DNA of 64,000 nt, from NCBI GenBank assembly GCA_964519305.1, contig CAZFHY010000013.1, positions 1-64,000 of the forward strand, given 5' to 3'. Each line of letters opens with the position of its first letter. Within the stretch, counting starts at the first letter, position 1. Made by a program: the position numbers and the translations under genes. The notes under the pieces were generated by a model. That model saw only the letters and a list, made by a program, of their open reading frames with translations, did not search any database and was not told the DNA's origin. Positions 1 to 19,380 of the stretch are shown here, in pieces. The DNA comes from Candidatus Undinarchaeota archaeon (GTDB taxonomy: Archaea; SpSt-1190; JASMDC01).

Positions 1-1044
1 GGCAACTTCGCATGCGTGAGCTACTCATGTTCATCCTCACAATGCGTCGCCGGATACGAGCTGTGCGGCTCGGGGTGCTACCAGACCGGTACGGGCATCT
101 GCTGCTCGGGAACGTGGGCTAGTGGCGGCGACTGCTGCGACGACGGGGACTGCACCGGTGGATTCTCTTGTCAATCCAACCAGTGCTCAACCAGCTGCGC
201 GTCAGGGTACACCTCCTGCGGCGGAAGCTGCTACACGACCGGCTCAGGCATCTGCTGCTCAGGAGTATGGAAGACCGGCGGCAACTGCTGCAGTGACGCG
301 GACTGCTCAGGCAATTTCGCCTGCATCTCAAACGCATGCTCATCATCGGACTGCGTGTCAGGCTACACTCTCTGCGGCGGAAGCTGCTACCTGACCAGCT
401 CAGGCACCTGCTGCTCCGGGACCTGGGAGGCTGGAGGGGATTGCTGCGGTGACAGCGATTGCTCGGGCAACTTCGCATGTGTATCAAACTCGTGCTCTTC
501 GACCCAGTGCGTGTCAGGCTATTCACTCTGCGGCTCGAACTGCTACCAGACAGGAACCGGTATATGCTGCTCGGGCGTGTGGAAGAGCGGAGGGGACTGC
601 TGCTCCAATACCGACTGCTCAGATAACTTCGCATGCGTGTCTAACGCATGCTCATCCACACAATGCGTCGCCGGGTACACCCTCTGCGGTGGAAGCTGCT
701 ACCAGACCACTACCGGCACCTGTTGCTCGGGCGTATGGAAGGTCGGCGGGGACTGCTGCTCCGACCCGGACTGCTCAGGTAACTTCGCATGCGTTACCAA
801 CCAGTGTTCAACCTCCCAGTGCGCCTCAGGATACACTCTCTGCGGTCTAGGATGCTATCAGACAGGAACCGGTACCTGCTGCTCGGGCGTGTGGAAGGCC
901 GGTGGGGACTGCTGCGGCGATGCCGATTGTTCAGGTAACTTCGCCTGTATATCAAACTCATGCTCCACGACACAGTGCGCATCAGGATACACACTTTGCG
1001 GCGGGAGCTGCTACGCCACTGGCGCCGGTACGTGCTGCTCGGGG
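1..1044 (+). repeat. 156-bp coding tandem repeat (one unit 153 bp)
   Basis: G(N/G)F(A/S)C-type motif starts at 1, 157, 310, 466, 622, 778 and 934. Consensus is GNFACxSNxCSSTQCxxGYTLCGGSCYQTGTGxCCSGVWKxGGDCCxDxDCS. Confidence 0.95.
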
Positions 1045-1047
1045 TAA
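1..1047 (+). CDS. Cys-rich tandem-repeat protein, 5'-partial, probably an extracellular disulfide-rich adhesin-like protein; ends mid-repeat
   Basis: Frame 1 is open from base 1 (GNFACVSYSC...) to TAA at 1045-1047. It has about 6.7 copies of a 52-aa unit with 10 Cys, and synonymous third-position variation between copies supports this frame. Confidence 0.85.
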   Translation, partial: GNFACVSYSCSSSQCVAGYELCGSGCYQTGTGICCSGTWASGGDCCDDGDCTGGFSCQSNQCSTSCASGYTSCGGSCYTTGSGICCSGVWKTGGNCCSDADCSGNFACISNACSSSDCVSGYTLCGGSCYLTSSGTCCSGTWEAGGDCCGDSDCSGNFACVSNSCSSTQCVSGYSLCGSNCYQTGTGICCSGVWKSGGDCCSNTDCSDNFACVSNACSSTQCVAGYTLCGGSCYQTTTGTCCSGVWKVGGDCCSDPDCSGNFACVTNQCSTSQCASGYTLCGLGCYQTGTGTCCSGVWKAGGDCCGDADCSGNFACISNSCSTTQCASGYTLCGGSCYATGAGTCCSG

Positions 1048-1298
1048 GTTACGTCGATGCCGGTGACGTTGATGTGCTTTCCCGCACCGTTGAGGATATG
1101 GAGCTGGAACACACCGGTGTCGCCGAAGATGTGGTCGCGGTAGTGGAGGCGGTCGCTGCCCACGCAGGTCCCCTTCATGTAGGAACCCTCGTTGAACAGG
1201 CCGAAGGAGTGCATGGCGGCGCCAGCGATTACGATGACCAGGATCATGCTCCCGTAGGTGAACAGGAACTCCATTGCCGCCTGTCCACGCGTCCGCAT
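1011..1298 (-). CDS. Archaeal type IV pilin-like protein with class III signal peptide, probably C-terminally truncated
   Basis: MRTRG^QAAMEFLFTYG has Q at +1 and E at +5, followed by a hydrophobic helix. An SD-like AGGAGTGA lies at about 1303-1310 on the minus strand. The last ~10 aa are antisense to the Cys-repeat gene. Confidence 0.8.
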   Translation of the reverse strand: MRTRGQAAMEFLFTYGSMILVIVIAGAAMHSFGLFNEGSYMKGTCVGSDRLHYRDHIFGDTGVFQLHILNGAGKHINVTGIDVTYPEQHVPAPVA

Positions 1299-1438
1299 AC
1301 GATCACTCCTTCATCATCCGAGACATAGTCTATACTCTCTTCTGAACAGTGTTAGGCCGTCATGGACTAATAACATGGCGTATAGAACGTATTTCTTCGC
1401 ATACCTTTTTCTATACAGGTATATGCTGACGCTCGACC

Positions 1439-2452
1439 CTACACCAGCTTCTTCTGCACGCCCTTCCCCAGATGTTCGTACGCCACGTTGCCGGCCTTTC
1501 TGCCGCTGCGCGTCCGTGTCAGGAACCCACGCTTGAGGAGGTAGGGCTCCACCATGTCCACCAAGGTGTCCCGCTCCTCGTTGAGGGTGGCGGCCAGTGC
1601 TTCGATGCCCACCGGTCCGCCGTCATAGAACTCGATGATCGTGGACAGCATCTTGCGGTCCAGATCGTCCAGACCCTCGCGGTCCACGCCCTCCAGCTCA
1701 AGGGCCTGCTCGGCGACGGTAGGGGTGACGACGCCCTTGGCCTCGACCTGTGCGTAGTCGCGGACACGGCGTAGGAGACGGTTGGCGATGCGGGGCGTAC
1801 CGCGGGCCCTTCGTGCGATCTCAGCGCCACCCTTGGGCTCGACAGGCACGTTCAGGAGGTCTGACGACCTGTCGACGATGCGCTCCAGCTCCTGCGATGA
1901 GTAGAAGTCCAGGTGGTGGTAGATGCCGAATCGCTCCCGCAGGGGGGCGGTGAGCGCGCCCGCGCGGGTAGTGGCGGCCACCAGGGTGAATGGTTTGAGG
2001 GGCACCTTGATGGTCTTGGCGAAGGCACCCTTGTCTACTATGAAGTCAGCGGAGAAATCCTCCATGGCCGGATAGAGGAACTCCTCCACCACCGGATTGA
2101 GACGATGGACCTCGTCGATGAAGAGCACGTCGCCGCGCTCAAGGTTGGTGAGGATGCCCATGAGATCTCCCGGGCGCTCCAGGGCAGGACCCGAGGTGGC
2201 GACCAGCTTGCTCCCCATCTCGTGGGCGATTATATGGGCCAGAGTGGTCTTTCCCAAGCCGGGGGGACCATAGAGCAGGATGTGCTCCACCGGCTCACGG
2301 CGCTGGCGTGCTGCTGTGAGGGCGATGCCCAGCTTGCGGACCACTGCCTCCTGCCCGATGAACTCGTTCAGTGTCGTGGGCCGCAGGCTCCAGGTGAACG
2401 CCCGCTCTTCCTCGTCCGTTGGTGTGCCGCTGACGACGCGCTCGCGTGCCAT
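1439..2452 (-). CDS. ruvB: Holliday junction branch migration helicase RuvB
   Basis: SLRPTTLNEFIGQ, Walker A GPPGLGKTTLA, Walker B FIDEVHRL, ATTRAG, RGTPRIANRLLRRVRD. Confidence 0.98.
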   Translation of the reverse strand: MARERVVSGTPTDEEERAFTWSLRPTTLNEFIGQEAVVRKLGIALTAARQRREPVEHILLYGPPGLGKTTLAHIIAHEMGSKLVATSGPALERPGDLMGILTNLERGDVLFIDEVHRLNPVVEEFLYPAMEDFSADFIVDKGAFAKTIKVPLKPFTLVAATTRAGALTAPLRERFGIYHHLDFYSSQELERIVDRSSDLLNVPVEPKGGAEIARRARGTPRIANRLLRRVRDYAQVEAKGVVTPTVAEQALELEGVDREGLDDLDRKMLSTIIEFYDGGPVGIEALAATLNEERDTLVDMVEPYLLKRGFLTRTRSGRKAGNVAYEHLGKGVQKKLV

Positions 2453-2453
2453 G

Positions 2454-3083
2454 TTACCCTCTCACCTTCCTGAATACCTCCGCGATGAGCTCGTCAGTGC
2501 CGGTGGCGCCGGGCAGGCGCGCGATGGCCTCGGACACCATCTTCTGTGCTTCCGGGCGGGAGTATCCGAGCTGTCGCAGCACGGTCTGTGCCTCCTCCCC
2601 GATGTTCGTCTCGCGGTGCGGGGACACTCCGGGCTCGCGCAGGAGGGCGAACCGCGCCATCTTTCCGTTGAGCTCGGCGATGACCTTCTCGGCGGCCCGG
2701 TTGCCTATACCCGGGAGGCGTGTGAGCGTTACCTTATCCTTGGCCTCGATAGCGAGGGCGATCTCGCTGATCGGAAGTGTCAGCGACCTCAGCGCCCGCT
2801 TGGGCCCGATCCCCTGGACGGTGATGAAGAGCTGGAAGAAGTCGCGGGCCACGGGATTGAGGAACCCGATCAACCGGGGCAGGAGCGGGCCGGGACCGGA
2901 TCCTCCCTCGAGGTAATGAAGTGTGTGGAACGTGACGTTAAGATCGGTCGCTTGGTCGAGCCGGACCCTCAACTCGTCGAGGATGCCCGACGGAATCTGG
3001 ACCTGGTACGATACATCGTTGGAGCGCACAACCGCGAACCCGTCGCCCACGTCCTCGAGCACACCCGTGAGCCGCCAGATCAC
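2454..3083 (-). CDS. ruvA: Holliday junction branch migration protein RuvA
   Basis: N-terminal OB fold, HhH motifs VQGIGPKRA and LPGIGNRAA, C-terminal LRQLGYSRPEA. GTG start overlaps the ruvC stop (GTGA). Confidence 0.95.
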   Translation of the reverse strand: MIWRLTGVLEDVGDGFAVVRSNDVSYQVQIPSGILDELRVRLDQATDLNVTFHTLHYLEGGSGPGPLLPRLIGFLNPVARDFFQLFITVQGIGPKRALRSLTLPISEIALAIEAKDKVTLTRLPGIGNRAAEKVIAELNGKMARFALLREPGVSPHRETNIGEEAQTVLRQLGYSRPEAQKMVSEAIARLPGATGTDELIAEVFRKVRG

Positions 3084-3601
3084 GTGTCCCCGCCCCCTTG
3101 AACACCATCACGACGCAGGGCGTCACAATGGCACAGGGCAACGGCGAGCGCGTCGGACACATCTGCCGGCTTGGGTGCTTCGTCAATGCCCAGGGCCGCA
3201 GCTACGGCACCCTGCACCTGCTCCTTGGATGCGCGACCGTTACCGGTGATCGCCTTCTTCACCCTGCTTGGCGGGTAGCCCGTCACCGCAAGGTCACGCT
3301 GAGCGGCCGCCAGGAGCAGCACCCCGCGGGCGTGGCCCATGACGATGGCGGTCCGGGGCCGCTGATAATGGGTGAAGAGCGCCTCTACCGCGACACAGGA
3401 AGGCCGGAACTCCTCCAGAACGCCTCCGAGGGCCTCGTGGAGAGTGCGCAGTCGCAGCTCTAGTGGGTCCTTGGGACTTGTCCGGAGCACACCGCCCTCG
3501 ACAAGTTCGACCGAACTCCCGCGCATCTGGACCACACCGTAACCGGTTATGTTGATACCGGGGTCCAGGCCCAGGACGCGCAGTCCCTCGTCAGGCTCCA
3601 C
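3080..3601 (-). CDS. ruvC: Crossover junction endodeoxyribonuclease RuvC
   Basis: VLGLDPG..TGYGV, VAVE, HARGV, VKKAITGNGRASKEQV, DVSDALAVA. Start moved to GTG 3601, about 25 bp downstream of a TATA box. Confidence 0.96.
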   Translation of the reverse strand: MEPDEGLRVLGLDPGINITGYGVVQMRGSSVELVEGGVLRTSPKDPLELRLRTLHEALGGVLEEFRPSCVAVEALFTHYQRPRTAIVMGHARGVLLLAAAQRDLAVTGYPPSRVKKAITGNGRASKEQVQGAVAAALGIDEAPKPADVSDALAVALCHCDALRRDGVQGGGDT

Positions 3602-3620
3602 GTCAATCTCTCGACGCTCT

Positions 3621-3638
3621 ACTATAAAAAAGGTTTGC
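3621..3638 (-). promoter_or_regulatory. Archaeal BRE/TATA promoter of ruvCAB (leaderless)
   Basis: Minus strand reads AAACCTTTTTTATAGT about 22-35 bp upstream of GTG 3601. Confidence 0.7.
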
Positions 3639-3666
3639 AGGGCCGTCTGCCGGTATTCCGGCAACC

Positions 3667-4998
3667 TCAGAGCCGAGAGAACGCCCTGATGCCACGCAGG
3701 AGGTTCATCGCGTCCCGCGGATCGCGCACTATCTCCCGTAGCCGGCGGCGGGCGAAAGCGCTTGTGAGGTAGAAGGAGCGGTAGGCCTCCCGCAGCAGCT
3801 CCTGGAGCCGTCCCTCGGAAAGGTGCGGGTGGTCGAACACCAGCTCGAACGTGTTGAACCGGTCCCACTCCCGGGAAACGTCGATGCCTCTGTCCGCGAG
3901 CCCGTCCCAGCTCGGGGTGCCGGGGAAGGGAGTGAAGATGGAGAAGTTTGCGAAGTCCGGTCCCAGGTCACGGGCCGTGTCGATGGTCGCCCGGACCGAT
4001 CCCTCGGTGTCGTCGGGGAATCCGAGGATGAAGCAGGCCCTCACGGCGACACCGTGGTCCTGGCACATGCGCATCACATCTTTTGTACGGTCAAGGTCCA
4101 CTGCCTTGCCGATGGACTTGCGCTCGTCGACCGATGCGGATTCCACTCCGATGCCCATGGAGGTACAGCCTGCGTCCGCCATGAGCGTTATCAGGTCCTC
4201 GGTGAGAAGGTCGCTGCGGGCCTGACAGTTCCAGGTGAGATCGTACTCCGTGATACGTCGGCAGAACTCCCGTGTCCGTTCGTCGTCGAATGGGAACGTG
4301 CCGTCCATTACCTTGAAGTCCCGCATACCGTGGTCCTCCACCAGCCGGTCGATGGAGGCGAACACCAGGTCCAGCTCGATGCGGGCGTGGCGTGACGGAC
4401 GCTGGCAGAAACCGCATGCGAACGGGCAACCACGCATGGTGAACACCGGGTATGAGGGCACATGCTTGGATGTGATAGTACCCTGTCCGTACCGGTCCAT
4501 GTCCAGAAGCTCGTAAGCAGGGACGCGGTCCGCGTCGGACGGGACGGGCACAGCATGGACACCTTTCGAGGCCCCGCGCACGATGGCAGCGAGCGCGTCC
4601 TCGCCGTCGCCCACGACGACATCGTCAACACACGCCTCGGCCGCGGTCTCGTTCGGAAGGACCGATGGATGAGGGCCACCCAGCACAGTGCGTGCCCCTG
4701 CGTCCCTGGCCCGCCGTGCGATATCGAGCGCCCCGGGGTACACGGACGTGTGTGCGGTGATGCCCACGATGTCCGGACTTCGGGCCAGGGCAGCATCCAG
4801 GTCCCCGGCCTGACCCACCGCCATATCCAGCACCTCCACCTCGCACCCGGTCACGTCCCGGACGTACCCGCCCAGTTGAGCCAGCCAAACCGGTGGCCAT
4901 GAGGATGCCAGATGGAACATGGCGCGGCCCATGGACCGCTCGCTCTCTGGCGGATTGACCAGCAGGAGGCGGCGGGCCCGCGTCGCCCGGGCCATCAT
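3667..4998 (-). CDS. B12-binding domain radical SAM protein
   Basis: LLLVNPP N-terminus, VLGGPHPS, VVGDGE, RGCPFACGFC (CxxxCxxC), GVES, FTPFPGT. Start at 4998 or 4995 overlaps the upstream stop. Confidence 0.93.
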   Translation of the reverse strand: MMARATRARRLLLVNPPESERSMGRAMFHLASSWPPVWLAQLGGYVRDVTGCEVEVLDMAVGQAGDLDAALARSPDIVGITAHTSVYPGALDIARRARDAGARTVLGGPHPSVLPNETAAEACVDDVVVGDGEDALAAIVRGASKGVHAVPVPSDADRVPAYELLDMDRYGQGTITSKHVPSYPVFTMRGCPFACGFCQRPSRHARIELDLVFASIDRLVEDHGMRDFKVMDGTFPFDDERTREFCRRITEYDLTWNCQARSDLLTEDLITLMADAGCTSMGIGVESASVDERKSIGKAVDLDRTKDVMRMCQDHGVAVRACFILGFPDDTEGSVRATIDTARDLGPDFANFSIFTPFPGTPSWDGLADRGIDVSREWDRFNTFELVFDHPHLSEGRLQELLREAYRSFYLTSAFARRRLREIVRDPRDAMNLLRGIRAFSRL

Positions 4999-5645
4999 CC
5001 CTCCCATTCGTAGGGCCGGGAGTAGAAGCCCTTCATGCAGGTGAGCTCCGACACGTCCTTGACCACCCGGGCCGGGCTGCCGATGACCACTTTACCTGCA
5101 GGCACGTCCTTGGTCACCACCGCGCAGGCTCCGACGATGGCCCCCTCGCCCACGGTAACGCCAGGGAATATGGTGGCCAGCGCCCCTATCTTGGCGCCCT
5201 TCTTGATGTGTGGGGCTCCCAGGCACTCAGTGTACCTCGGGCACCGTGGGTGGGGATCGTTGAGGAATAGCGATCGTGGCCCGATGAATGCATTGTCCTC
5301 GATGACCGAGTACTCGCCCAGGATGGCTGCCGTGTGGATGCTGACGTTATTACCGATTCGATGGCCGTTCTCCATGGCCGCGAGCGTGCCGATGCTCACG
5401 TTGTCACCGATAATGTTGTCCTCGCGGATGCGCGCACCGCTGCCCGTGGAAAGGTTGTCGCCGATGGTGGTCCCCGCATAGATCACCGAGTGGGTGCGGA
5501 CCACGGCGTTATCACCGATGACCAGCTCCAGTTCGCCGTCCTCGCTGCCGCGGGGCGGTACTCCGAGGACCGCATAAGGCTCGATGACCGCGCTCTTCCC
5601 AAGTCTGACGTTGGGGTACCGTACGTATGGGATTTCCTTGACCAT
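4995..5645 (-). CDS. Hexapeptide-repeat (left-handed beta-helix) N-acetyltransferase, WbpD-like
   Basis: IGDN/IGNN hexapeptide repeats, FLNDPHP, VGACAVVTKDVP..GSPARVV. Start placed at MVKEIPY. Confidence 0.9.
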   Translation of the reverse strand: MVKEIPYVRYPNVRLGKSAVIEPYAVLGVPPRGSEDGELELVIGDNAVVRTHSVIYAGTTIGDNLSTGSGARIREDNIIGDNVSIGTLAAMENGHRIGNNVSIHTAAILGEYSVIEDNAFIGPRSLFLNDPHPRCPRYTECLGAPHIKKGAKIGALATIFPGVTVGEGAIVGACAVVTKDVPAGKVVIGSPARVVKDVSELTCMKGFYSRPYEWEG

Positions 5646-5655
5646 GGGCAACACC

Positions 5656-6456
5656 TCACACCGGCGGCCTGGGCTGCACCACAAGCCGCGTGATGCCCAT
5701 CTCCGCTAACCGCCCTTCATCGGGTACGTCGTGGTTCTCGTAGAACACCGCGTTCCCCTGGAGAAGAAGGGGTCCGGGCATGATGGGATGGGTGAGCGTG
5801 AAAGATGTGGTGCGACACTGTCGGTCGCAGGGCCAGACACCAACACGGACTGGGCTGTCGCTGTCGCAGTTCGCTGTCGGGCAGAGCCGTGTAGTGGTCA
5901 CGGCCATGAACGGTGTGTATAAAGAGCCCTCCAGTGGATCGGGCCCCTTGCTAAGATCGAGGTCAAGGCCCTGGAGGGGATTGTCCACCTCGACGCGCCT
6001 GACGCCACGCTCGTGCAGGAACCGCCTGAAGATCGGGACGGTGAGATTGTTCTCACGGTACTGTCGCAGGGTTTCTTCCGGAAGGCGGTCGATCACGCGC
6101 ATGATGCGCGGCCCCTTGCGCAGCCGGTTGAGCACACGACCCATGAGCGGTTCGAGCCCCTGATCACGTAGAGTGGAAAGCACGCCCCAGTCATTGGCCA
6201 CGACCTCGCACGCAGCCTCCTCGCTAGCCAGGGCCGCAAGTACCGGCTCGAGGCGGTCCAGGCCGATATCGGTCACCAGGGGGGTGACGAGCGTGAAGGC
6301 ACGACCTGCATCCCTTGCCGCGTGGAGCACCGACATGACCTCGTTCTCGGTCGGGATCAGGTTCTGACAGAACTCGCTACCAAAGTACACGCGCCGGGCA
6401 TCGTCCTCCACAAGGTCGAGCTGGTCGGCCCGGGCTATGAGCGTGGCGCGCTCCAT
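5656..6456 (-). CDS. U32-family partner subunit (UbiV-like TIM-barrel/Fe-S protein)
   Basis: RVYFGSEFC, FTLVTP, EVVANDWG, TTTRLC..C...PCDRQC, LQGNAVF. Translationally coupled to the U32 gene (TGATG). Confidence 0.7.
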   Translation of the reverse strand: MERATLIARADQLDLVEDDARRVYFGSEFCQNLIPTENEVMSVLHAARDAGRAFTLVTPLVTDIGLDRLEPVLAALASEEAACEVVANDWGVLSTLRDQGLEPLMGRVLNRLRKGPRIMRVIDRLPEETLRQYRENNLTVPIFRRFLHERGVRRVEVDNPLQGLDLDLSKGPDPLEGSLYTPFMAVTTTRLCPTANCDSDSPVRVGVWPCDRQCRTTSFTLTHPIMPGPLLLQGNAVFYENHDVPDEGRLAEMGITRLVVQPRPPV

Positions 6457-7556
6457 CAGACGTCAACCTCCATGACCGACGGATAGTAGCAGTACCCGAG
6501 CTCGCAGTCGACGCCGAACCGCTGCTTGTGCTCGGCCCGGGTGTGGCGGATGAACTCCTCTCGTGAGGGTTTCTCGGTCGCCATGTAGTCCAGCAGATGA
6601 CGTATGAACCGCACGTCGCCCACCTTGCGTGATGTGGGGAACGCGCGTCCGATGATCTTAATGCTCTCCAGTCCCATCGTCGCCAGGTCGTGGATGGCAC
6701 AGGCGCCGCACTCTACCTGAGTCTTTCGCTTGACAAAGCGTTTCATGCGCTCATGTGCATTGGCCTGCTTCTCCTCGTCCAGGTCCCCATCGATTGTGAC
6801 CGTGTGCCGCAGCTCGCAGGGCTCCAGCCATTCCATGCACACGCTCTCGTCAATGAGCGCTTCGAGCACCCGCCGTGGCAGGCGTTTGGCAAGGGAAACC
6901 ACACGGTCGTTGTGCTTTACCGCCATGAAGGCCTTGCCCACCACAGGGTGAACAGGGTTCATGATCTCGTGGAGACCGTGCTGGAATGTACAGAAACCCT
7001 CCACGTTCCGGCAGCGACCGTTGAGGATGAACACCTCGATGCCTGTCCCCTCCGATCCTTTCACGATGCGACGTATCTCCTCGACGGTGAGGTGGCGATC
7101 GAGGATGACCCGTGATGCTCCCAGGTCCCGGAAGAAAGCGGCCGACGTGGCGTTGATGACCGAGGCCCCCGTGCTCACGTGGAGGTCAACGGGCAATCCC
7201 TCGTCCTTCACCAGAAGCAGGAGCCCGATATCGGCGATGATGAGCGCGTCCACACCCGCGTCCACGGCGGTCCTAAGCTCATCGAGCACCACAGGGTACT
7301 GTTCCTCGTCGTAGTAGTGGGCATTGGCGGCGAAGTACAGCCGTGCACCCTTGTCGTGGGCGAGCGTCGCGGCCGTCCGTATCTGGTCGAAGGAGCGGAA
7401 GTTGGGCTCGCCGCACTCGCGTCGGTTCGAAGAGCAGATGGTACTGTAGACCTCCTCCCATTTCTTCGTTATGAGGCCGCAGTAGAGAGCATTGGCGCCA
7501 GCGTCGATCAAGGGCACAACCTCGTCGGCCGTGGTCAGGGGCGCCAGCAGCTCCAT
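6456..7556 (-). CDS. U32 family ('peptidase') Fe-S protein, UbiU/TrhP/RlhA-like
   Basis: MELLAP, GANALYCG, GVDALIIADIG, LHVSTGASVIN, GASRVILDRHL, GRC....GFC, CGACA, SIKIIGR. Confidence 0.9.
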   Translation of the reverse strand: MELLAPLTTADEVVPLIDAGANALYCGLITKKWEEVYSTICSSNRRECGEPNFRSFDQIRTAATLAHDKGARLYFAANAHYYDEEQYPVVLDELRTAVDAGVDALIIADIGLLLLVKDEGLPVDLHVSTGASVINATSAAFFRDLGASRVILDRHLTVEEIRRIVKGSEGTGIEVFILNGRCRNVEGFCTFQHGLHEIMNPVHPVVGKAFMAVKHNDRVVSLAKRLPRRVLEALIDESVCMEWLEPCELRHTVTIDGDLDEEKQANAHERMKRFVKRKTQVECGACAIHDLATMGLESIKIIGRAFPTSRKVGDVRFIRHLLDYMATEKPSREEFIRHTRAEHKQRFGVDCELGYCYYPSVMEVDV

Positions 7557-7580
7557 GGCTCTCGGCGGGAAGCTGTCAGG

Positions 7581-7592
7581 CAAAATATATAA
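7581..7592 (-). promoter_or_regulatory. TATA box of the U32 operon
   Basis: Minus strand reads TTATATATTTTG about 25-35 bp upstream of ATG 7556. Confidence 0.65.
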
Positions 7593-7610
7593 CATGAACG
7601 TCCGGTCGCG

Positions 7611-8840
7611 TCAGGCCAGTGCCCGCTTGATAACGGCCACGGTCCGCTCCATGTCCTGTTCGCTAAGGGTGTGCCACACGGGCAGGGCCAATCCCTGTGC
7701 ATCGGCACGGGCGGCGACTGGGCAGGGCCGAGCGTACTGCTTCAGGGCGGGCAGGTTGGAGCAGTCGTCAGCTATGTTCACCTTCGTATCGATACCTGCG
7801 CGGAACAGCTCCTGCACCAGACGCTGGCGGTCCTCGACCTGGATGACGTAGTGGTAGTAGATGTGGCGTCCGCCATCCGCCTCCTCGGGCACTGTCACAC
7901 CAGGGACGTCCCGTAGGCCCTCGGTGAGAATCTTGGCTCGTTCCCTGCGCGCGTCACTGCTGTCGTCCAGTCCGTCGAGCTGGACAAGCCCCGTCCGCGC
8001 CTGGAGGGATGACATACGCACCGTGTAGTTCGCTGGCATCTCGTCCTGGAGCGTCTCGTCGTGTGACATGCCCTTGGGCGCTCCCCCGCGGACCATGGAG
8101 AGCAGCCGCAGCGGCGGGTACAGGCCGAGCGAGTACACCCACGGCCGGGAGAGGACACCGCCTACTGAGCCTATGGCCACCTTGATGGCGAGCTGCTTCC
8201 TGCCGGGAAGCGTATACTCTCGCTCGAGGGCGCGCACCTTTTCGGCCAGCTCCTCGTCGTCCGTCGTGACCATCCCGCCGCCGAAGGCGGTCATGTTCTT
8301 GAACAGGTTGAAGGAGAAGAGACCCGCTTTGCCAAGTGAACCCGCCCGCCGGTCGCGGTACGATGCGCCGTTCGCCTGGGCACAATCCTCTATTACCGGC
8401 ACGCCCCGCTCCTCCGCCAGCTCCAGCACCTCGTCCATGGGTGCTGGATTGCCGAACAGGTGGGTGGGGACCAGAACACCGGTGTCATCCCCGACAACCG
8501 ACCGGAGCGTCTCGGCGGAGACGTTGAGCGTGCCCGGCCCCACGTCGGCGAACACGGGCCGTCCGTTTGCCATGAGGGCGACATTGCCCATGCCCCAGAA
8601 GGTGAAGGCGGGTAGAACTACCCCCTTCCCCTCAACGTCCAAGGCCCGTAGCAGGTGGTGGAAGCCCGTCCGCGCGGAGCCCACGGCGACGGCATGACGC
8701 ACTCCGATCAGGGCTGCGAAACGTCGCTCGAGCTTCGTGACGGCGTCGGGATCCTCGCTGCCGAACAGGCCACAAGCCCCCCTGACGGTGTCGGCCAGTC
8801 CGACATTGACGTGGTGCCGCGGGAAGCTCTTGAGGCCCAT
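7611..8840 (-). CDS. DegT/DnrJ/EryC1/StrS family PLP-dependent sugar aminotransferase
   Basis: HAVAVGSA, VLPAFTF, PVFADV, THLFGNP, IEDCAQA, FSFNLFKNM (catalytic Lys), LALPV. Start placed at MGLKSFP. Confidence 0.93.
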   Translation of the reverse strand: MGLKSFPRHHVNVGLADTVRGACGLFGSEDPDAVTKLERRFAALIGVRHAVAVGSARTGFHHLLRALDVEGKGVVLPAFTFWGMGNVALMANGRPVFADVGPGTLNVSAETLRSVVGDDTGVLVPTHLFGNPAPMDEVLELAEERGVPVIEDCAQANGASYRDRRAGSLGKAGLFSFNLFKNMTAFGGGMVTTDDEELAEKVRALEREYTLPGRKQLAIKVAIGSVGGVLSRPWVYSLGLYPPLRLLSMVRGGAPKGMSHDETLQDEMPANYTVRMSSLQARTGLVQLDGLDDSSDARRERAKILTEGLRDVPGVTVPEEADGGRHIYYHYVIQVEDRQRLVQELFRAGIDTKVNIADDCSNLPALKQYARPCPVAARADAQGLALPVWHTLSEQDMERTVAVIKRALA

Positions 8841-8984
8841 GGGGCAAGAGGTGCGGTGCAGGTTTTTCAATGTTTGCTCAAGGTCGGGATGTATCGTCGA
8901 GCACTCATTTTCGGATTCACGGTGTGATCCCAAGGATCTATCGCCCCCGAGTCCCCAACGGGTCCGATGAAACACATTTGAGGG

Positions 8985-9701
8985 ATGAGCCACATTATAC
9001 TGTCGATGCAGGATCCTGCGTTCTCAGCCTCGGTCCTTGCGATCGCTGCATGCATGAGCGTGACCCACTACCTCAGCCACCGCATCTCCGTGTTCATGGA
9101 GGAGCACCACTATCGTGTCCTGAGCTTCAGCGGCGGTTCGCTCATCGCCCTCATCTTCCTGGTCCTCCTGCCGGAGACGGTGCGCATCGCCCGCACAGAC
9201 GACGTCTACCTACTCCTCCTGGCGGGCTTCGTGGCGTTCCATCTGACCGAGAAGTATCTCTACCAGCACGTGCGCAACAAGTGCGATCTCCTGGAGGACC
9301 TGCGCGAACTCCACGTAGCGGGTTTCTTCGTGGACCATTTCATCCTCGGGTTCGTTCTTGTGACGACCGTTGAGCTCACACCCCAGGCGGGTTATCTGAT
9401 CCTCATCCCGGTGTTCCTCCACACGATCTCGTCCTCTATCACCATGGAGCACATCCACGAAACTGCGGAGACGCATGTACACAAGCTGCTGCTCTCGGCC
9501 TCACCGCTTCTCGGCGCTATTGTGGCCCTCGCCCTAGAGGTAGAGGCACAGACGGAAGCATCGGTCCTGGCGTTCATCATCGGGATGCTGCTCTACATCG
9601 TCAACCGCGACATCATCCCCAAGGAGGAGAAGGGTCGTCCGGCCATGTTCATTACCGGGCTGGCGGTGGTAGTCGTGCCCTGGTTCCTGATCTCGCACTG
9701 A
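8985..9701 (+). CDS. ZIP-family-like metal transporter membrane protein
   Basis: SFSGG..IFLVLLPE, FHLTEK, His-rich TM segments (ELH..DHF, FLHT). True start may be ATG 9006. Confidence 0.7.
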   Translation: MSHIILSMQDPAFSASVLAIAACMSVTHYLSHRISVFMEEHHYRVLSFSGGSLIALIFLVLLPETVRIARTDDVYLLLLAGFVAFHLTEKYLYQHVRNKCDLLEDLRELHVAGFFVDHFILGFVLVTTVELTPQAGYLILIPVFLHTISSSITMEHIHETAETHVHKLLLSASPLLGAIVALALEVEAQTEASVLAFIIGMLLYIVNRDIIPKEEKGRPAMFITGLAVVVVPWFLISH

Positions 9702-9727
9702 GCATGCTCTCTGGGAACGAGGATTGT

Positions 9728-9752
9728 GGGCGAGGGGAAACGCCCCCCGCCC
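9728..9752. terminator. GC-rich hairpin between the convergent ZIP gene and tRNA
   Basis: GGGCGAGGGG-AAACG-CCCCCCGCCC imperfect inverted repeat. Confidence 0.45.
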
Positions 9753-9754
9753 GG

Positions 9755-9828
<74 letters not shown>

Positions 9829-9886
9829 GCGTCGGGGAAGGCACAGGCACAGCCACAATTATAAAGGTTTTCCATTGCCCCGGTGC

Positions 9887-10552
9887 GTGGCCGAAGACGA
9901 GGGGGAGAAGGCCGAGCACGAGGCGCTCGTTCGCGGTGCTTTCACCTTATTCCTGCTGAGCGCCGTGTTCTACATCCCGCTCGATCTCGCCACGACGTAC
10001 ATCTTCTTCACAAGCGTTGGAGGCGGCATCGAGCTCAATCCGTTCTTCGGTGGGCCCATGGCAAGGTGTACGACCCGCCTGTGCATCCTAGGCGTGCTGG
10101 GTGGGCTCTTCCTGCTCAAGGCAGCGCTTCTCGGATGGTTCGGGTTCATGCTCCTAGTGTACCGGTACGATCCGACGAAGGAGATCATCTACTCCCAGCT
10201 CCTGCTCCGGATATCTCTTGTATCCGCGCTGCTGTCCATCCTGCTGGTGGCCAACAACGCCCTCTTCCTCTGGCTCTACCTGTTCGAGCTTTACGCTACG
10301 TGGTTCCAGGTTGCCCTCTTCCTGACGTTCGCCATCTACGCGACCTCGTTCATACTTGGCATGGTGCTCAACCGGGAGCCCGTGGTGATCGCGGCCGACG
10401 TCGACCTCCCGGTGCTCCTTGTGGTCACCTTGGTGGTGTCGTTCATCCTGTGGGAGATATCTGGCATCCCCTACATCGCCGTGTCCTTCGCCATCCTGAC
10501 GTACGGCAACCTCGAGGTGTTCCGCTACTACTGGGAGGGCGGGGAGAGGTAG
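9887..10552 (+). CDS. Hypothetical multi-pass membrane protein (DLATT...ELNP motif, DUF5658-like N-terminus)
   Basis: About 6-7 hydrophobic helices. GTG start about 25 bp from the TATA shared with the tRNA. Confidence 0.65.
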   Translation: MAEDEGEKAEHEALVRGAFTLFLLSAVFYIPLDLATTYIFFTSVGGGIELNPFFGGPMARCTTRLCILGVLGGLFLLKAALLGWFGFMLLVYRYDPTKEIIYSQLLLRISLVSALLSILLVANNALFLWLYLFELYATWFQVALFLTFAIYATSFILGMVLNREPVVIAADVDLPVLLVVTLVVSFILWEISGIPYIAVSFAILTYGNLEVFRYYWEGGER

Positions 10553-10553
10553 C

Positions 10554-12089
10554 CTACCATCCCATCTCCGCAGCAGGCCCCCCGGGCCGCTCACGGATCC
10601 ATCGCACGATCTCGTTCTTGGTGTCGAACAGCTCGTAGCCACGGAACAGCAGGTGGGCAGGTGCCGAGACGTTCGGTGTATGGGCACGCAGGGCGGCCAG
10701 GATACGCTGACGCGAGCGCTCCTGCCCCTCCTTCTTCTGGTCCCAGGGAACGCCTCCCTCGTCGAAGTGTATGTGCGCACGATTGCCGTCCCACACTACA
10801 TCCCGGTTCTCGATGATGGCATCGATACCGAACTCATCGGGATGCTGCATGATGACCGACGCCCGATAGGGGATGAACACGAGCACATTGTAGTTGTCCA
10901 TGGTATGACCGTGGGTGCGGATGAACGCCTCGGTGAGGGCGATATCCTCCTCCGTCTCGGAGACGAAACCGGCGATGAGGTTCACGAGGTTCCAGATCCC
11001 AGCTTCGTGGGAGGCCTCCAGCACCGCGCCCGCACCGTCGACGGTGAACCCCTTGCGCATGAGCTCAAGGAGGCGTGGGCTTCCCGTCTCCGCACCGTAG
11101 GTGAGGCGCACGCATCCCGATGCGCGGAGACGGTCGAGGCGCGATCGGTCCAGGCCTGTTGGCCGGGCCGAGTCCATCCACAATATGTCGAGCCCCTCCC
11201 GCGCGACCGCGTCGCACCAGTCCCGGACGTACTTCTTCGAGATGTTGAACGTGTTGTCCAGGAATAGGAAATGTCGGGAGCTGTAGGTATCGGAGAGCCG
11301 TGCGAGCTCACCGACCACCTTGTCCATAGCCTTTGCCCGGAGCCCGTCGAGATTATAGCTGTAGTAATTGCAGAACGTACAGTGACTGGGACAGCCCTTA
11401 ACGAGCTGGTAGGGCAGGGGGAGGATGGTGGCGCCGTCCACGTCCAGCGAGTACACGTCCATGGGAAGTCCGCTGAAATCGGGTGCGGGGACCTCCTCGA
11501 TGGGCAGATGAGCGCGAACGTTGCTTTGGACCACGCCGTCCGCGTCCCGGTACACGAGCCCCGGCACGTCCTCCACGCGACGCGTCCCCTCCAGATGCTC
11601 TAGAAGTCCCAGCATGGGGATCTCTGCCTCGTCCATGACCACATAGTCGACGAAGGACGCCTGGGCCAGTGTCTCCTCACCGACATTGGGACCACCCAGC
11701 ATTATCGTGGCACCGGTCGTCCCCTTGAGGTGGCGAGCGAGGCAGAGGGCAGGCAGCACCTGGTCCGGCTCCATCACGGAGAGTCCGATCAGGTCAGCGC
11801 CGCGGATGTCCACCTTCCGCGCCATGCGCTCGACCAGGGTATCCAGGTAGGGATCGGGTCGACCGTCGAGGTAGGGCAGCACCCGGCCACGGTCGGCCAA
11901 GAAGAGAAGGTTGACGTGAAGGGTACGAGCGGGTGTGCGGTTGTCCCGCCACACCAGGGCGTCCACGTCGTCCTGGTCCACCGCAACACCGTTGGTGCGG
12001 AGGAACGCGGCCAATGTCGCCTGCCCCAGCGGGAGGGTGCGCGGATGGGTCCCGCCGTCTGTTGGGGCGAAGAGCAGATGTACCTTCAT
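10554..12089 (-). CDS. B12-binding domain radical SAM protein
   Basis: LPLGQATLAAFL, IMLGGP, KGCPSHCTFC, FLDNTFN, YGAETGS. Confidence 0.92.
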   Translation of the reverse strand: MKVHLLFAPTDGGTHPRTLPLGQATLAAFLRTNGVAVDQDDVDALVWRDNRTPARTLHVNLLFLADRGRVLPYLDGRPDPYLDTLVERMARKVDIRGADLIGLSVMEPDQVLPALCLARHLKGTTGATIMLGGPNVGEETLAQASFVDYVVMDEAEIPMLGLLEHLEGTRRVEDVPGLVYRDADGVVQSNVRAHLPIEEVPAPDFSGLPMDVYSLDVDGATILPLPYQLVKGCPSHCTFCNYYSYNLDGLRAKAMDKVVGELARLSDTYSSRHFLFLDNTFNISKKYVRDWCDAVAREGLDILWMDSARPTGLDRSRLDRLRASGCVRLTYGAETGSPRLLELMRKGFTVDGAGAVLEASHEAGIWNLVNLIAGFVSETEEDIALTEAFIRTHGHTMDNYNVLVFIPYRASVIMQHPDEFGIDAIIENRDVVWDGNRAHIHFDEGGVPWDQKKEGQERSRQRILAALRAHTPNVSAPAHLLFRGYELFDTKNEIVRWIRERPGGPAAEMGW

Positions 12090-13112: not shown

Positions 13113-15185
13113 TCACTTCTTCCCCTTGGAGCCCTTCTTCGCCCGTGTGATGCTGCTCTTCCCCCGAGGTCCTTTCCGCAGGGATGACGCTGGCTTCTCC
13201 TTGACCTCCGCTGCAGGCTTCGACACGGTCTTTTTCCCCTTGGTAACGGTCGGGGCAGGAGATGTCACGGCGGGTCCGGTGCCATCCACTCCTTTAACGA
13301 CCGTCACTTCCTGCTTCACTTCCCTTCCGAGGACCAAGAGAATTATGATACCGACCACGAGGAACATGCTGAAGAATACAAGGAAACCTCCTACGGAGGG
13401 TCCGCTGTCCTGCTCCTGCCACGCTTCTGTCCCTTTTCCCGCGACGTCCTCCATGCCCTCAACGTCCTCGCCGCCGCCGGTGTCCAGGTCCGCCCTGCCC
13501 CTCAACGGTGCGGGGGTGGCCTGCTCCCACGGGTTCGTCGGTTCCGGCCACGGGAGGTCCTGAACGTCGGGCGGTGTCTCCGGCTCTTCGAAATCGGTGT
13601 CGCCCCCCGACTCCTTAACCGGGAGGAACTCTTCGACAGCGGTGGTTCCGTCCTGTTCTTCAGGAGGTGTGGCGATACGGAGCGGAAGCTTGCCGGTGAG
13701 TCGTCTGCCCGTGTCGTTCACGACGACCACTATGTCCCCGGCCCAGTTCTCCCTGACCTCCAGCCCAATCATGAGCGGCTCCTCGACATCGCGCCCCTCT
13801 GCGATGATGACCTCGTATCCGGTGGAATCGTACACACCCACGTCGACCTTTCCCTTCCCCCGGAATCCGTCCTCGTCAGTGAGCTCGACAACGAGGATGA
13901 GGCCGTCGCCCACCTTAATCGTGTCGAGCGTGCCCTCCGGGGAGCGGGCCGTCACCCTCACCTGAGTGACATTTGGTGGGAACTTCTCCTTGTCAAGGTG
14001 GACGGTCAGAGAGCTGATCGGGACACCCTTCAGTGATAAAGTGCCCTTCAGGGTCCAGTTGGTGAGCCGGCGCTGGGGCTGGAGCTGGAATCGCTCGAGG
14101 AGCACACCCTCTCCGCTCGAGACCGAGACCGGGGACGAGCCCTTCCACACGTGCCCCCGTTCGTCCTCGATCAGGATGGCGAACTCGGCACCCTCCAGAT
14201 CGGTCTGCCGGTCAGCGGGTGATACGAACTCCACCGATATGTTCAGGTCCTGACCCCTGTTAATCAGAGGCCGGTGCGGGGTCATACGTGCGACCCTGCC
14301 GCTGTCGCCAACGACGTCGATGCGGCTCCTATAGATCGAGAGCAGTCGATTACCGGCGTATGCCTCGATGAGGATGGTGTAGGCGGTGATCCGGTCCGGT
14401 GAGCGGAAGGTGCCGTTGATGAGCCGCACCTCGCCCGGACCGATCGTCCCGACATGATGGCGGGACTGAACTAGCGGGATGGACGGCGTTAGCGGATCTA
14501 ATCCCGAGACGGGCTCGGTGTCGTCCCAGTCGTAGATAGTCACGCGCAGCTCTACGTCATCCAGCGCGTCCGTGCCCTCGTTCAGGAAGGTCACGTTGAA
14601 AGGCTGCTCGCTCCCCGGATCGACGCGGGGACCGACGGGGCCTATCTCATGGGCGAAGTAAGTCTCGTTGCGCAGCATCCGCAGGCTCGTCCAAGGCCCC
14701 GGGTTCTCGACGATGAAGTGGGGGCAGTAGAGGTGGGGCTCACAGGGTGTCAGGGACTGTGTGGGCGTGAAGTAGATGAAAGGGACGCCAGTGACCGGAC
14801 TATGGGTCGTCTTGAGATACCCGTCGAGCCGGTAGAGTCCAGGACGCGCCCAGACGGGGATTGGGACCGTGAAGCGCCGCTTCACAACGGTTTTCGGCCA
14901 AACGTGGATACCCCGCTCCACCTGCTCGAAGATGACGTTATCCCAGGAGTCCTGTGAGTACGGCTCGGGCACGTCCGCTCCATCGACCAGCTGGAAGGCT
15001 ATGTACCCGTCCACGATGGGTGACTCGAACGCCTGGACCTCGACCTCGACGAGGAGGCCCTCCCCCGCAATATAGCGGTACCTATCGAGACGTAGCTCCA
15101 TGGCACCCGATGTGAACGTGGGCAGGAGCGCGGCCGCCTGCTGGCAAGCGAGGAGCATCGCTAGAACGATTATACTTGCGATCAT
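13113..15185 (-). CDS. Secreted membrane-anchored protein with Ig-like/beta-rich domains
   Basis: Signal peptide MIASIIVLAMLLACQQAAA, beta-rich body, acidic Pro-rich linker, TM helix, Lys-rich tail. Start is uncertain (15185 or 15221). Confidence 0.75.
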   Translation of the reverse strand: MIASIIVLAMLLACQQAAALLPTFTSGAMELRLDRYRYIAGEGLLVEVEVQAFESPIVDGYIAFQLVDGADVPEPYSQDSWDNVIFEQVERGIHVWPKTVVKRRFTVPIPVWARPGLYRLDGYLKTTHSPVTGVPFIYFTPTQSLTPCEPHLYCPHFIVENPGPWTSLRMLRNETYFAHEIGPVGPRVDPGSEQPFNVTFLNEGTDALDDVELRVTIYDWDDTEPVSGLDPLTPSIPLVQSRHHVGTIGPGEVRLINGTFRSPDRITAYTILIEAYAGNRLLSIYRSRIDVVGDSGRVARMTPHRPLINRGQDLNISVEFVSPADRQTDLEGAEFAILIEDERGHVWKGSSPVSVSSGEGVLLERFQLQPQRRLTNWTLKGTLSLKGVPISSLTVHLDKEKFPPNVTQVRVTARSPEGTLDTIKVGDGLILVVELTDEDGFRGKGKVDVGVYDSTGYEVIIAEGRDVEEPLMIGLEVRENWAGDIVVVVNDTGRRLTGKLPLRIATPPEEQDGTTAVEEFLPVKESGGDTDFEEPETPPDVQDLPWPEPTNPWEQATPAPLRGRADLDTGGGEDVEGMEDVAGKGTEAWQEQDSGPSVGGFLVFFSMFLVVGIIILLVLGREVKQEVTVVKGVDGTGPAVTSPAPTVTKGKKTVSKPAAEVKEKPASSLRKGPRGKSSITRAKKGSKGKK

Positions 15186-15330
15186 GGCCGTTCGGCCCGA
15201 GCGCTCCGTTCCGTCATGCATGAGGACCCGTGCTCCAACGAAATTGATACAGGATATATTATTAATCCTCATTGATTCCTGCGGCTTGAGATTTGAACGG
15301 TCGCCAAATGAGTATTTAAAGTGTATTTAA

Positions 15331-15360: not shown

Positions 15361-15420
15361 AGTATGGCCATAGGTTATAATGGCTGGGCTGCTTTAGCAC
15401 TTATTAGGGGAGTATGGGGA

Positions 15421-18400: not shown

Positions 18401-19380
18401 AGGAAACAACGATCATCCTCGCGGTACCGTCAGAGCCAACGAGCACTCCGGATAATACGACCGAGGACGCTCCCGATGGACCTGTCGTGGTGGAGCTCGA
18501 GCCCATCGAGGTCGAGACCCTCCCGGGAGAGGTCATCTACACCCCCATCACCATCAACAACCCCGAGGATGAGTCGATGAACATCACGATCACCATCATG
18601 GAACAGGGAAAGGCCGTGGTGATAAAGGGGAGCGATACAGAGATGATGGCCACGGTCAAGGGAAAGGAGACGGTAAGGTTCATGGTCCCCGTGTCCGCCC
18701 CCGCGTCGTTCTCGGTGAGCATGGAGGCCGTTCCCGCAGTGCCCGTGGAGGGCGAGGACAAGAAGATCAAGTACGTCCTTCCCGTGGGTGTCGTCGTCGA
18801 CAACCAAGACAAGGGTAAGATCGTTTGCGATAAGGGATATGAGTGCGTCTCCGGTACACACTGCAGCTTCCAGCACTGCTGCCCCGTCCGTGACATGCCC
18901 TGGTTCTGGTCATTCACTGCGAACGGATGCTCGGGTGACCTGAGCATGCTCGAGGTCCCCTCGAGGAACGTCAACCTCGCACTGGGGACCGAGATCCTGC
19001 TCCCGATCAGTGTGAAGAACCCCTATTCCCATGAGGTCGATGTAGAGATCAGCGTCAGCGGGGGTGGAAGGGTGATGGTGACGCTGGGCGCCGAGGAGAA
19101 CATCCTTGCCAAGAAGGTCTCGCTGCTGCCCGGGGAGCAGAGAATCGTTCTCGCACGTTTGCTCGGTACAAAAGTGGGGAGGTTCGACCTTGTCATTGAG
19201 ACGCGTTGTGACGAGGCCGGATGCGCTCTCACGGCTCCCGCACAGGTATCCATGCTCGTGACCACGGACGCGGCACTACTCGGAGAACAGGTCGAGATCC
19301 GGACCGCGCCCGGCACGGGTGTGGCAGAGGTAGCGTTCCTCGCCCTCCTCAGCCTCGGGTATCTATACCGCAGGGACTGA
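15421..19380 (+). CDS. Large Cys-rich cell-surface protein with Ig-like domains and a C-terminal anchor
   Basis: Signal peptide, many paired Cys, DRNGNGKQDPGE Ca-binding-like loop, poly-Glu linker, C-terminal APGTG-hydrophobic-RRD resembling PGF-CTERM. Confidence 0.85.
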   Translation: MSCKHRNSRPIAYLIISAIVLASLVVGEPKLMVKITDVESGLRIPQEYTPHPGDVISVKVQGKRELVRDSIITFGRDDFIVRKDADDWGTATFTIPQGATGEFTVFATLMDMEAELVTFPVQNDLGIELVSKPWRTTDACENTELAVRVRDESGNTITGATVWFGEDFELTGLDGIARHQLPTGTANPLLLRAMKAQYGEAQLSVSVGTRRIQNVVVHPQKSDDPRKPWKYGTVCRGGEIMVKINTECFPETELFEVFVEDIFIGFCAPEGSERYSLWEDRNGNGKQDPGEIVQYCNLALPLSVGPGQHGVSVFYKNETVGEGDIVIPEGEDTEYDWRCGEDPDTTTGDLPNECWFFVSSSCVANRCFHSWGRNSGGEVFSTIIRTLADDLPWEPGIQVCPGRPVFTARFGGMDLRCSNGVFRRNRGRAPVYARIMDCPLGGCGEDPLRTPGEIVSMDQTNSICNLYVSGMGWVQGIGMKAELKRKTRSSTCWFGWNHNARDMSVNAPGDPGEYKLFFDAVTRICDNPRVTSGRRYWTCPDCKGENAPASCSQDASCMYRGRWVRKRAWGSDGWQIAAGEPKVFEVIPPRLFILQYPQEPLCPGAAIEPVVYHAMCIDPTTVADLMEWDPESGTSRAIPLGECGAEGAEDPLAGSVVVANLTCQGLTVPEDLDFIGGRTYELALRTTGDTVYQDRRVLQISGKSLSVPSIDSPVCTNDTMRIPFVAQCTLPPSGFFFGEEEAAGDCAPCAEPGVTCRSNCTLIVPDEIDEGWHRFTVTNEASENTTAFVEVWKPGSLNLREIYLTKSKCKKCRILILDVFNPGPGEVPLMGLSDQAERYVVPNLPACKVTADSDNPISVGPGSSANLTFNIKCNVPMKQTISIHFNVTAFYSDKCGCSQLVDGGRQYVDKYCKATDSWDVVITYKGTGAPCKRKDAKDGYCELDDPRTEADEEGVCLPLSGSGDAPCIGSLCGSVTAIETVEEEEEEQVPGEEEETTIILAVPSEPTSTPDNTTEDAPDGPVVVELEPIEVETLPGEVIYTPITINNPEDESMNITITIMEQGKAVVIKGSDTEMMATVKGKETVRFMVPVSAPASFSVSMEAVPAVPVEGEDKKIKYVLPVGVVVDNQDKGKIVCDKGYECVSGTHCSFQHCCPVRDMPWFWSFTANGCSGDLSMLEVPSRNVNLALGTEILLPISVKNPYSHEVDVEISVSGGGRVMVTLGAEENILAKKVSLLPGEQRIVLARLLGTKVGRFDLVIETRCDEAGCALTAPAQVSMLVTTDAALLGEQVEIRTAPGTGVAEVAFLALLSLGYLYRRD

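Follow-up and report, generated by a model that had tools for sequence, protein, structure and literature searches.

At the left end of a contig from an archaeal genome, two genes encoding surface proteins are both truncated at a single junction, where they run into each other across 9 bp of shared sequence. On balance, we favour reading this junction as the fixed scar of a one-off event of illegitimate recombination; the simplest such event would be one deletion that affected two neighbouring, convergent genes, one encoding a very large adhesin headed by a pilin domain and the other a Cys-repeat surface protein. The junction is genuine DNA, and the 3' parts of both genes are absent from the assembly.

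The window analysed here covers 64 kb of contig C13 from its first base onwards, so that window position 1 is a contig end. The assembly comprises 3.63 Mb in 42 contigs, is 99.83% complete, and contains ribosomal protein S8e and an archaeal SSU rRNA (1508 bits). The host is a marine archaeon, a large-genome member of a small-genome archaeal class. The features around the junction are collected in Table 1.

Table 1. Features at the left end of the window.
Feature	Position	Strand	Remarks
Cys-repeat surface-protein gene, visible 3'-terminal part	1..1047	+	5' end open at the contig end; 348 aa
95-aa ORF	1298..1011	-	Starts MRTRGQAAMEFLF...
Native remnant, codons 1-88 of the pilin-headed adhesin gene	1035..1298	-	84/88 identical to P0001
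Non-native tail HVPAPVA (residues 89-95) and stop	1011..1034	-	Antisense reading of the Cys repeat
Junction microhomology CTGCTCGGG, 9 bp	1035..1043		Repeat codons C-S-G, antisense of pilin P-E-Q codons
Interrupted palindrome GTAAGTTAC	1044..1052		Codons V-T-Y of the pilin remnant; not taken as a site
Intergenic region upstream of the pilin remnant	1299..1438	-	GGAGTGAT just before the ATG
ruvB	1439..2452	-	Pfam; opens ruvB-ruvA-ruvC, which reaches 3868; stable right-hand flank of the proposed scar

Both homologies end within the same nine base pairs

A sequence-only reading of this DNA had proposed that both genes are broken at one junction, a rearrangement breakpoint, and our analysis bears this out: both homologies end in 1035-1043, inside CTGCTCGGG, that of the repeat holding to 1043 and that of the pilin from 1035. 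The two ORFs converge tail to tail and their overlap, when measured, had the 37 bp given in that reading. On the minus strand the remnant reads ...GTA ACT TAC CCC GAG CAG / CAC GTA..., its closest paralogue, on contig C20, reads ...TGG CCC GAG CAG GAC..., and the orthologue P0001 has PEQD at this place; from this comparison, native sequence therefore ends at CAG (plus-strand position 1035). The pilin had been thought to be lost after ...DVTY; the truncation itself is real, but its exact point lies three residues later (YPEQ, residue 88). Likewise, the last ~10 residues of the pilin had been taken for the antisense of the repeat, which is correct for residues 89-95 (HVPAPVA) but not for residues 86-88, as these are native.

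We placed CTGCTCGGG using the DNA of all repeat copies together with that of the C20 paralogue at PEQ. It has one plus-strand direction in both parents, occurs in three further copies of the array (at 102, 567 and 879), and is over-represented genome-wide, with 117 occurrences against ~28 expected. The palindrome GTAAGTTAC, which had been said to sit on the junction, is indeed present at 1044-1052, but does not stand out as a special site: the 64-kb window contains 249 such 4-1-4 palindromes, one per 257 bp, so that GTAAGTTAC is at chance level.

The minus-strand ORF is most likely a dead adhesin remnant

What is left of the adhesin gene encodes a putative signal peptide of class III type, then a hydrophobic helix and strands 1 to 4 of the beta strands of a pilin domain; we take MRTRG/QAAMEFL to be the class III cleavage site. 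The Class_IIIsignal model PF04021 matched the remnant weakly (E 0.06; 13.8 bits, below the 23.7 cut-off), and no Pfam or NCBIfam model matched the pilin domain at cut-off. Residues Q6, E10, Y15 and G16 are invariant across 28 aligned relatives, and four loci in the genome score above the PF01478 cut-off for the A24 prepilin peptidase. An AlphaFold (AF2) model of P0001 residues 1-154 (mean pLDDT 87.6; 28 aligned sequences) consists of a helix at 2-31 and eight strands; on this modelled domain, the cut after residue 88 would fall after strand 4 of 8, with the last four strands gone. Foldseek matches for the P0001 domain include the pili of Pyrobaculum calidifontis (8fk7, E 3e-4), as well as those of Sulfolobus (8q30 and 6nav) and Pyrobaculum arsenaticum (6w8u), the latter three at E 1e-3 to 5e-3; the TM-scores were low (0.31-0.42) and eukaryotic TRAP subunits ranked equally high. 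On this modest evidence, we consider it reasonable to call the remnant family pilins.

The family resembles archaeal type IV pilins in its N-terminal RGQAAMEFL followed by a hydrophobic helix, in the helix and eight-strand sandwich modelled for the orthologue, in the pilus matches of Foldseek and in the presence of A24 peptidases in the genome. It differs from them in lacking a family model at cut-off and in the very large C-terminal parts to which its pilin domain is fused in this genus. A further difference of the copy in the window is that it has half a domain: the complete globular beta domain that follows the helix in the intact orthologues is missing from it. Archaeal type 4 filament loci are described as encoding large adhesin-like proteins next to pilins (PMC13705601).

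The identity between the remnant and P0001 (1373 aa) ends exactly at ...DVTYPEQ (residue 88), and P0001 goes on for 1285 residues past this point. Its 90% cluster also includes P0010 (1361 aa) and P0011 (1383 aa; contig up to 60.5 kb). In these three proteins PEQ is followed by ~65 more residues of the pilin domain, to ...LVCTGRI, then by a PKD domain (Pfam) and by ~12 beta modules of ~90 residues each; the Cys repeats are absent from all three.

Comparison of pilin lengths, a check that the sequence-only reading had proposed, set the window copy apart, with 95 aa against 145-173 aa or 1361-1383 aa in its relatives. The shorter range is that of the stand-alone pilins of small-genome relatives in the class (17 of 18 motif-bearing ORFs, at 9 loci), which often lie three in a row and end in ...TGKxE; the window copy has neither this conserved C-terminal block nor the conserved second Cys. 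When a 197-aa paralogue was searched against the genome, the matches at 13 other loci reached residue 196 or 197, and the match in the window copy ended at residue 112 of 197; an extra short match (C2:64317-64415) covered residues 9-41 only.

A tblastn search of the assembly with P0001 returned residues 1-88 in the window and a 55% paralogue on C20, and nothing else. This comparable paralogue on C20 assembled well. A stray C-terminal half of the pilin domain was not found in the genome's own contigs. A class-wide search of 17 genomes gave no close orthologue of P0001; the closest pilin-headed gene of the sister genome G001 (63%) lies at another place, and the gene after it is not Cys-rich. The search for P0010-bearing loci among metagenome contigs led to 27 pattern matches, none of which was confirmed. 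The genome harbours 14 pilin-head loci, most of them fused to unrelated C-terminal domains, and loci of pilin-headed giant adhesins differ between close relatives.

Since half a pilin beta sandwich is left and the second conserved Cys is missing, the 95-aa ORF is most likely a dead remnant, although it retains the start, the ribosome-binding site, the putative signal peptide and the helix.

The Cys-repeat gene halts inside a repeat unit

On the plus strand, the Cys-repeat ORF (19% Cys) halts in the middle of a repeat at the TAA in 1045-1047. Tandem Repeats Finder reported an array with a 156-bp (52-aa) period, 5.4 copies and 73% matches, which ends at 1043. The claim that the gene stops at CCSG-TAA where the earlier repeats continue with (V/T)W was accurate: all six earlier CCSG sites run on into (V/T)W, and the seventh (1033-1043) is followed by the stop. 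Towards the other side, the array runs off the contig both in the assembly and in all four of the run assemblies described below.

The repeat unit has no family match in Pfam or NCBIfam. The nearest relative of the array is P0012 (58% identity, likewise with a 52-aa period), followed by P0003 (45%). P0012 ends in an FGE-sulfatase-like domain (precomputed Pfam PF03781); when this C-terminal domain was compared with the assembly, the only matches were 40-44% paralogues, inside contigs C1 and C14. Neither the flanks of P0003 in the genome's own contigs nor a second copy of the array in the assembly (blastn) was detected, and no other contig end of the genome runs out in Cys repeats of this type.

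Elsewhere in the genome, surface-protein genes are broken at the ends of contigs C5 and C15. We considered whether the array is the middle of a gene that is split across C5 and C15 and is orthologous to P0005 / G001 C28, and set this assignment aside as less likely. The middle repeats of that gene are ~73 aa by our own count, against 52 aa in the array, and the array matches them at 37%, against 58% for P0012.

A conserved flank lies to the right of the junction. ruvB is 94% identical in the sister genome G001 and 86% identical, at the DNA level, in the metagenome contig L034, whose 86% identity to the window extends over ruvB-ruvA; L034 was the sole related locus among 13 found by a scan for an 18-base intergenic motif. 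An alignment with the sister genome shows two short conserved blocks in the intergenic DNA that lies upstream of the remnant. The DNA after ruvB differs in the sister lineage: L034 carries an IS5-like DDE transposase there and no pilin gene, and the ruvB contig of G001 stops 138 bp past ruvB, those bases matching L034 by eye. The region beyond ruvB is variable between relatives.

A single deletion between convergent neighbours is the favoured explanation

According to the explanation that we favour, the ancestor would have carried a ~1370-aa adhesin gene on the minus strand, convergent to the Cys-repeat surface-protein gene on the plus strand, and this adhesin would have comprised a class III signal peptide, an archaeal pilin domain, a PKD domain and ~12 beta modules. 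Two 9-bp direct repeats CTGCTCGGG (plus strand), the first being a C-C-S-G site of the array and the second the antisense of the P-E-Q codons of the adhesin, may have recombined by slippage or by microhomology-mediated end joining. The deletion would have taken the adhesin codons from 89 onwards, the spacer between the genes and the terminal part of the repeat gene, one 9-mer remaining. Its product would be half a pilin domain in a 95-aa ORF, presumably with loss of function, and a repeat gene ending inside a repeat unit.

The joint shows what is expected of a microhomology-mediated deletion, namely a single copy of a short direct repeat with each flank coming from a different parent, and the lost DNA is absent within the 3.63-Mb assembly. 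Replication slippage would leave an identical product. That both 3' parts are gone from an assembly of 99.83% completeness is in line with this explanation, because one deletion would remove both; the missing parts could also sit in unassembled or unbinned DNA, as the array continues past the contig end. For microhomology-mediated joining a range of 4-20 bp is given, within which the 9 bp found here fall, and the process is reported as observed in Haloferax volcanii and Sulfolobus islandicus (PMC8708640).

Compared with spontaneous deletions at short direct repeats, the junction is alike in having one 9-bp copy at the joint, in the loss of sequence to either side, in the absence of an enzyme-specific site and in occurring in one fixed form; it differs in that the parental arrangement, the mechanism and the size of the loss are here those that we infer. 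Some observations run against a deletion. One is the different DNA that the sister lineage has after ruvB (the transposase of L034 and the contig end of G001), and another is the genome-wide over-representation of CTGCTCGGG. The microhomology would also serve an inversion equally well.

The main rival is a one-off, non-programmed chromosomal inversion, to which we assign a clearly smaller, still appreciable chance. Two genes of the same strand would have recombined at the 9-bp microhomology, present in them in inverted orientation, so that their 5' parts came to face each other by their tails; both 3' parts, at the reciprocal junction, would then lie in unassembled or unbinned DNA, or would have been lost later. 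Two converging 5' parts are the geometry expected from co-oriented genes, the array is not resolved at the contig end in any assembly, and further surface-protein genes of the genome are interrupted at the ends of C5 and C15. Against this inversion, ~3.9 kb of adhesin 3' sequence is missing from the 99.83%-complete assembly, in which the C20 paralogue assembled well, and whereas one event suffices for the deletion, the inversion calls for a further event or for a loss during assembly. The sequence-only reading had explained the junction by inversion of a segment carrying the Cys repeats; such an inversion is not needed, since a deletion between convergent neighbours yields the identical geometry.

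The junction is genuine DNA

The sequence-only reading had held a misassembly at the repeat to be an equally live explanation. A chimeric join made during assembly or amplification deserves attention here, as the junction sits 1 kb from a contig end and within a repeat region. Moreover, the chimeras of multiple displacement amplification typically have an inverted join and a short microhomology, and the junction resembles them in these respects. Such chimeras are random and rare at any one site, whereas this joint is the sole form in four separate run assemblies.

Eight of the 12 public runs listed contain at least 0.97 of 404 words sampled from positions 1-4000 of the window. In the Logan contigs (k=31) of the four runs that were compared, which represent four samples from two studies with word depths of 9.6 to 45.6, a single contig covered positions 1-2500 in every case, with no other letters and no gaps, and neither a joint nor a loose end was seen around 1040. 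These four contigs end 0, 0, 18 and 141 nt beyond window position 1, the 141 nt being more repeat. The shared 9 bp is far under k=31, so that every 31-mer over the joint must exist in reads and reads must span it. Furthermore, the exact 95-aa product was found on 12 contigs from NCBI, Logan and ENA, and its 87-aa call on 11 JGI contigs. It may be that the assembly was itself made from these runs and that they represent a single population, which is the point that an artefact could still draw upon. Given the identical contig in four of four runs, we conclude that the junction is genuine DNA and is unlikely to stem from misassembly or from a random chimera of amplification; far from being equally live, this explanation is largely excluded, and the chance that we leave to it is slight.

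Programmed switching is not supported

The sequence-only reading had also drawn an analogy to the PilV shufflon, in which the other orientation would join the signal peptide to a Cys-rich tip. That a programmed, reversible inversion, shufflon-like or phase-variable, swaps the C-terminal part of the pilin-headed protein is, in our judgement, very improbable, and the shufflon reading of the junction is not supported. The idea draws on the 14 pilin-head loci, mostly with unrelated C-terminal domains, and on a tyrosine recombinase that lies ~3 kb from one of the paralogues, on contig C6. The R64/IncI1-IncI2 shufflon has the site-specific recombinase Rci and several 19-bp inverted repeats, and mixed structures are found even in a clone (PMC5430464). 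The junction shares with this system (Rci, sfx sites and the PilV tip adhesin) a type IV pilin-like N-terminus, C-terminal parts that vary between gene copies, and a break point within a coding region; here, by contrast, neither a recombinase nor a repeated site was found, a single structure was seen, and the adjoining segment is not an alternative in-frame C-terminus.

As for the recombinase, Pfam models identified none among RuvB, RuvA, RuvC and 19 further ORFs of the window (3670-29998), and the four genome matches to the tyrosine-recombinase model PF00589 lie on C14, C29, C6 and C17, with none on the whole of C13; a recombinase gene adjoining invertible segments was thus lacking, to the right of window position 1, both in the window up to 30 kb and, for integrases, on the entire contig. 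A recurring site was lacking as well. The 61-mer of the junction had no other match in the genome of more than 14 exact bases, except for one repeat copy of the array, and inverted repeats in 1-12000 were short and poor, the best one touching 1053-1082 being 30 nt at 70%; multiple inverted recombination sites of ~19 bp were not found. A single orientation, with no loose end at the joint, was present in the contigs of all four runs, it being understood that contigs drop rare variants and a minority orientation could go unseen.

The proteins themselves also speak against a switch, as no constant pilin N-terminus is joined in frame to alternative C-terminal segments at this locus. The Cys repeats are not in frame to extend the pilin, and the antisense repeat is not an alternative tip because it adds seven residues and a stop. 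The intact orthologues, which lack Cys repeats, carry instead the rest of the pilin, the PKD domain and the beta modules, contrary to the Cys-rich tip that had been suggested for the other orientation. Between the remnant and the intact alleles known so far, 4 of 88 residues differ, and these alleles therefore represent other lineages and not the flipped state of the clone.

It is equally improbable that nothing is broken and that a natural 95-aa minor pilin overlaps a natural repeat-protein end by 37 bp: both ORFs are open and have stops, and the start and the ribosome-binding site of the remnant are kept, but the HVPAPVA tail has no counterpart in any relative, the homologue searches revealed no diverged relatives with a ~95-aa pilin bearing it, the 90% cluster of the 95-aa form consists of itself and its 87-aa call only, the ...TGKxE end of the homologous 145-173-aa pilins is missing here, and both homologies stop inside one 9-bp stretch. 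The probability that remains falls to more complex events.

Meaning of the junction for the archaeal cell surface

For annotation, our results imply that the 95-aa "pilin" and the repeat ORF are remnants, and not a short pilin and a complete protein. They also illustrate that a tail-to-tail pair of broken genes near a contig end can be genuine DNA. What looked like a programmable pilin switch would be an ordinary gene-truncating scar, so that the finding is mostly a correction.

The wider setting, with its many pilin-headed giant adhesins, is modestly informative on surface variation in archaea, and this surrounding family is a more interesting subject than the scar. One could go further and see in the scar a snapshot of lineage-specific turnover of surface adhesins, a proposal that we regard as speculative and rather improbable. 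If it were true, the 14 pilin-headed genes and the many Cys-repeat genes would exchange, lose and gain outer domains by recombination at short repeats in arrays and in Gly/Ser/Thr linkers, and such turnover would provide strain-level surface variation without a dedicated recombinase.

Pilin-headed genes in the genome

Besides the window copy, we found a pilin-like head of about 150-190 aa in 13 more genes of the genome under study (G000), distributed over six contigs. In several of these genes the head region is 75-84% identical to that of the C1 paralogue, and most of them continue beyond the head, often by way of a Gly/Ser/Thr linker, into unrelated C-terminal regions as long as 1788 aa. Judged by eye, these regions appear to be FG-GAP/VCBS-like, NHL-like, Calx-beta-like, lectin-like and Cys-repeat domains. 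Contig C6 also encodes a tyrosine recombinase (PF00589, within a 434-aa frame), roughly 3 kb away from one of its pilin-headed genes (C6:11294-9603).

A Cys-rich, C-terminally membrane-anchored surface-protein gene looks to be divided between contigs C5 and C15. Both stretches stand at a contig end and run into a (GSGT)n linker. The gene's orthologue in the sister genome (P0005) is unbroken, with 1201-1209 aa. The C5 part is adjoined by a prepilin-peptidase-like gene.

Positions of the genes and loci described (C numbers are contigs of G000 unless another genome is named)
Feature	Location	Strand
Pilin-headed genes, three in a row	C20:29905-19974	
Pilin-headed gene	C1:525298-525891	
Pilin-headed gene	C6:95121-97031	
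Pilin-headed gene	C6:11294-9603	
Pilin-headed gene	C6:17253-15643	
Pilin-headed genes, two	C2:65498-66824	
Pilin-headed genes, two	C14:58742-65958	
Pilin-headed gene	C10:58933-60366	
Pilin-headed gene	C10:2463-2942	
Tyrosine recombinase	C6:6092-6580	-
Split gene, C5 part	C5:1-1369	-
Split gene, C15 part	C15:1-1776	+
Unbroken orthologue	L024:1967-5596	
Prepilin-peptidase-like gene	C5:1472-1762	
ruvB-ruvA-ruvC	window 1439-3868	-
IS5-like transposase	L034:2098-3027	-
Contig break after ruvB	G001:C62:1-138	
ORF, 719 aa	window 13116-15272	-
ORF, 1338 aa	window 15364-19377	+
ORF, 623 aa	window 26710-28578	+

The DNA beyond ruvB and the genomic setting

According to Pfam, the window carries a complete bacterial-type ruvB-ruvA-ruvC set in an archaeal genome. 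In a related lineage (L034) the position directly after ruvB is occupied by an IS5-like DDE transposase (PF01609, PF13737), whereas in G000 it holds the pilin remnant; in the sister genome G001 the contig breaks at this spot. Three large ORFs of the window had no Pfam match at E 1e-5.

G000 and its single congener measure 3.6-3.8 Mb, and the genomes of the 15 other species of the class that were compared, 0.6-1.2 Mb. In small-genome relatives, the domain that forms the pilin-like head of the G000 genes is a stand-alone pilin.
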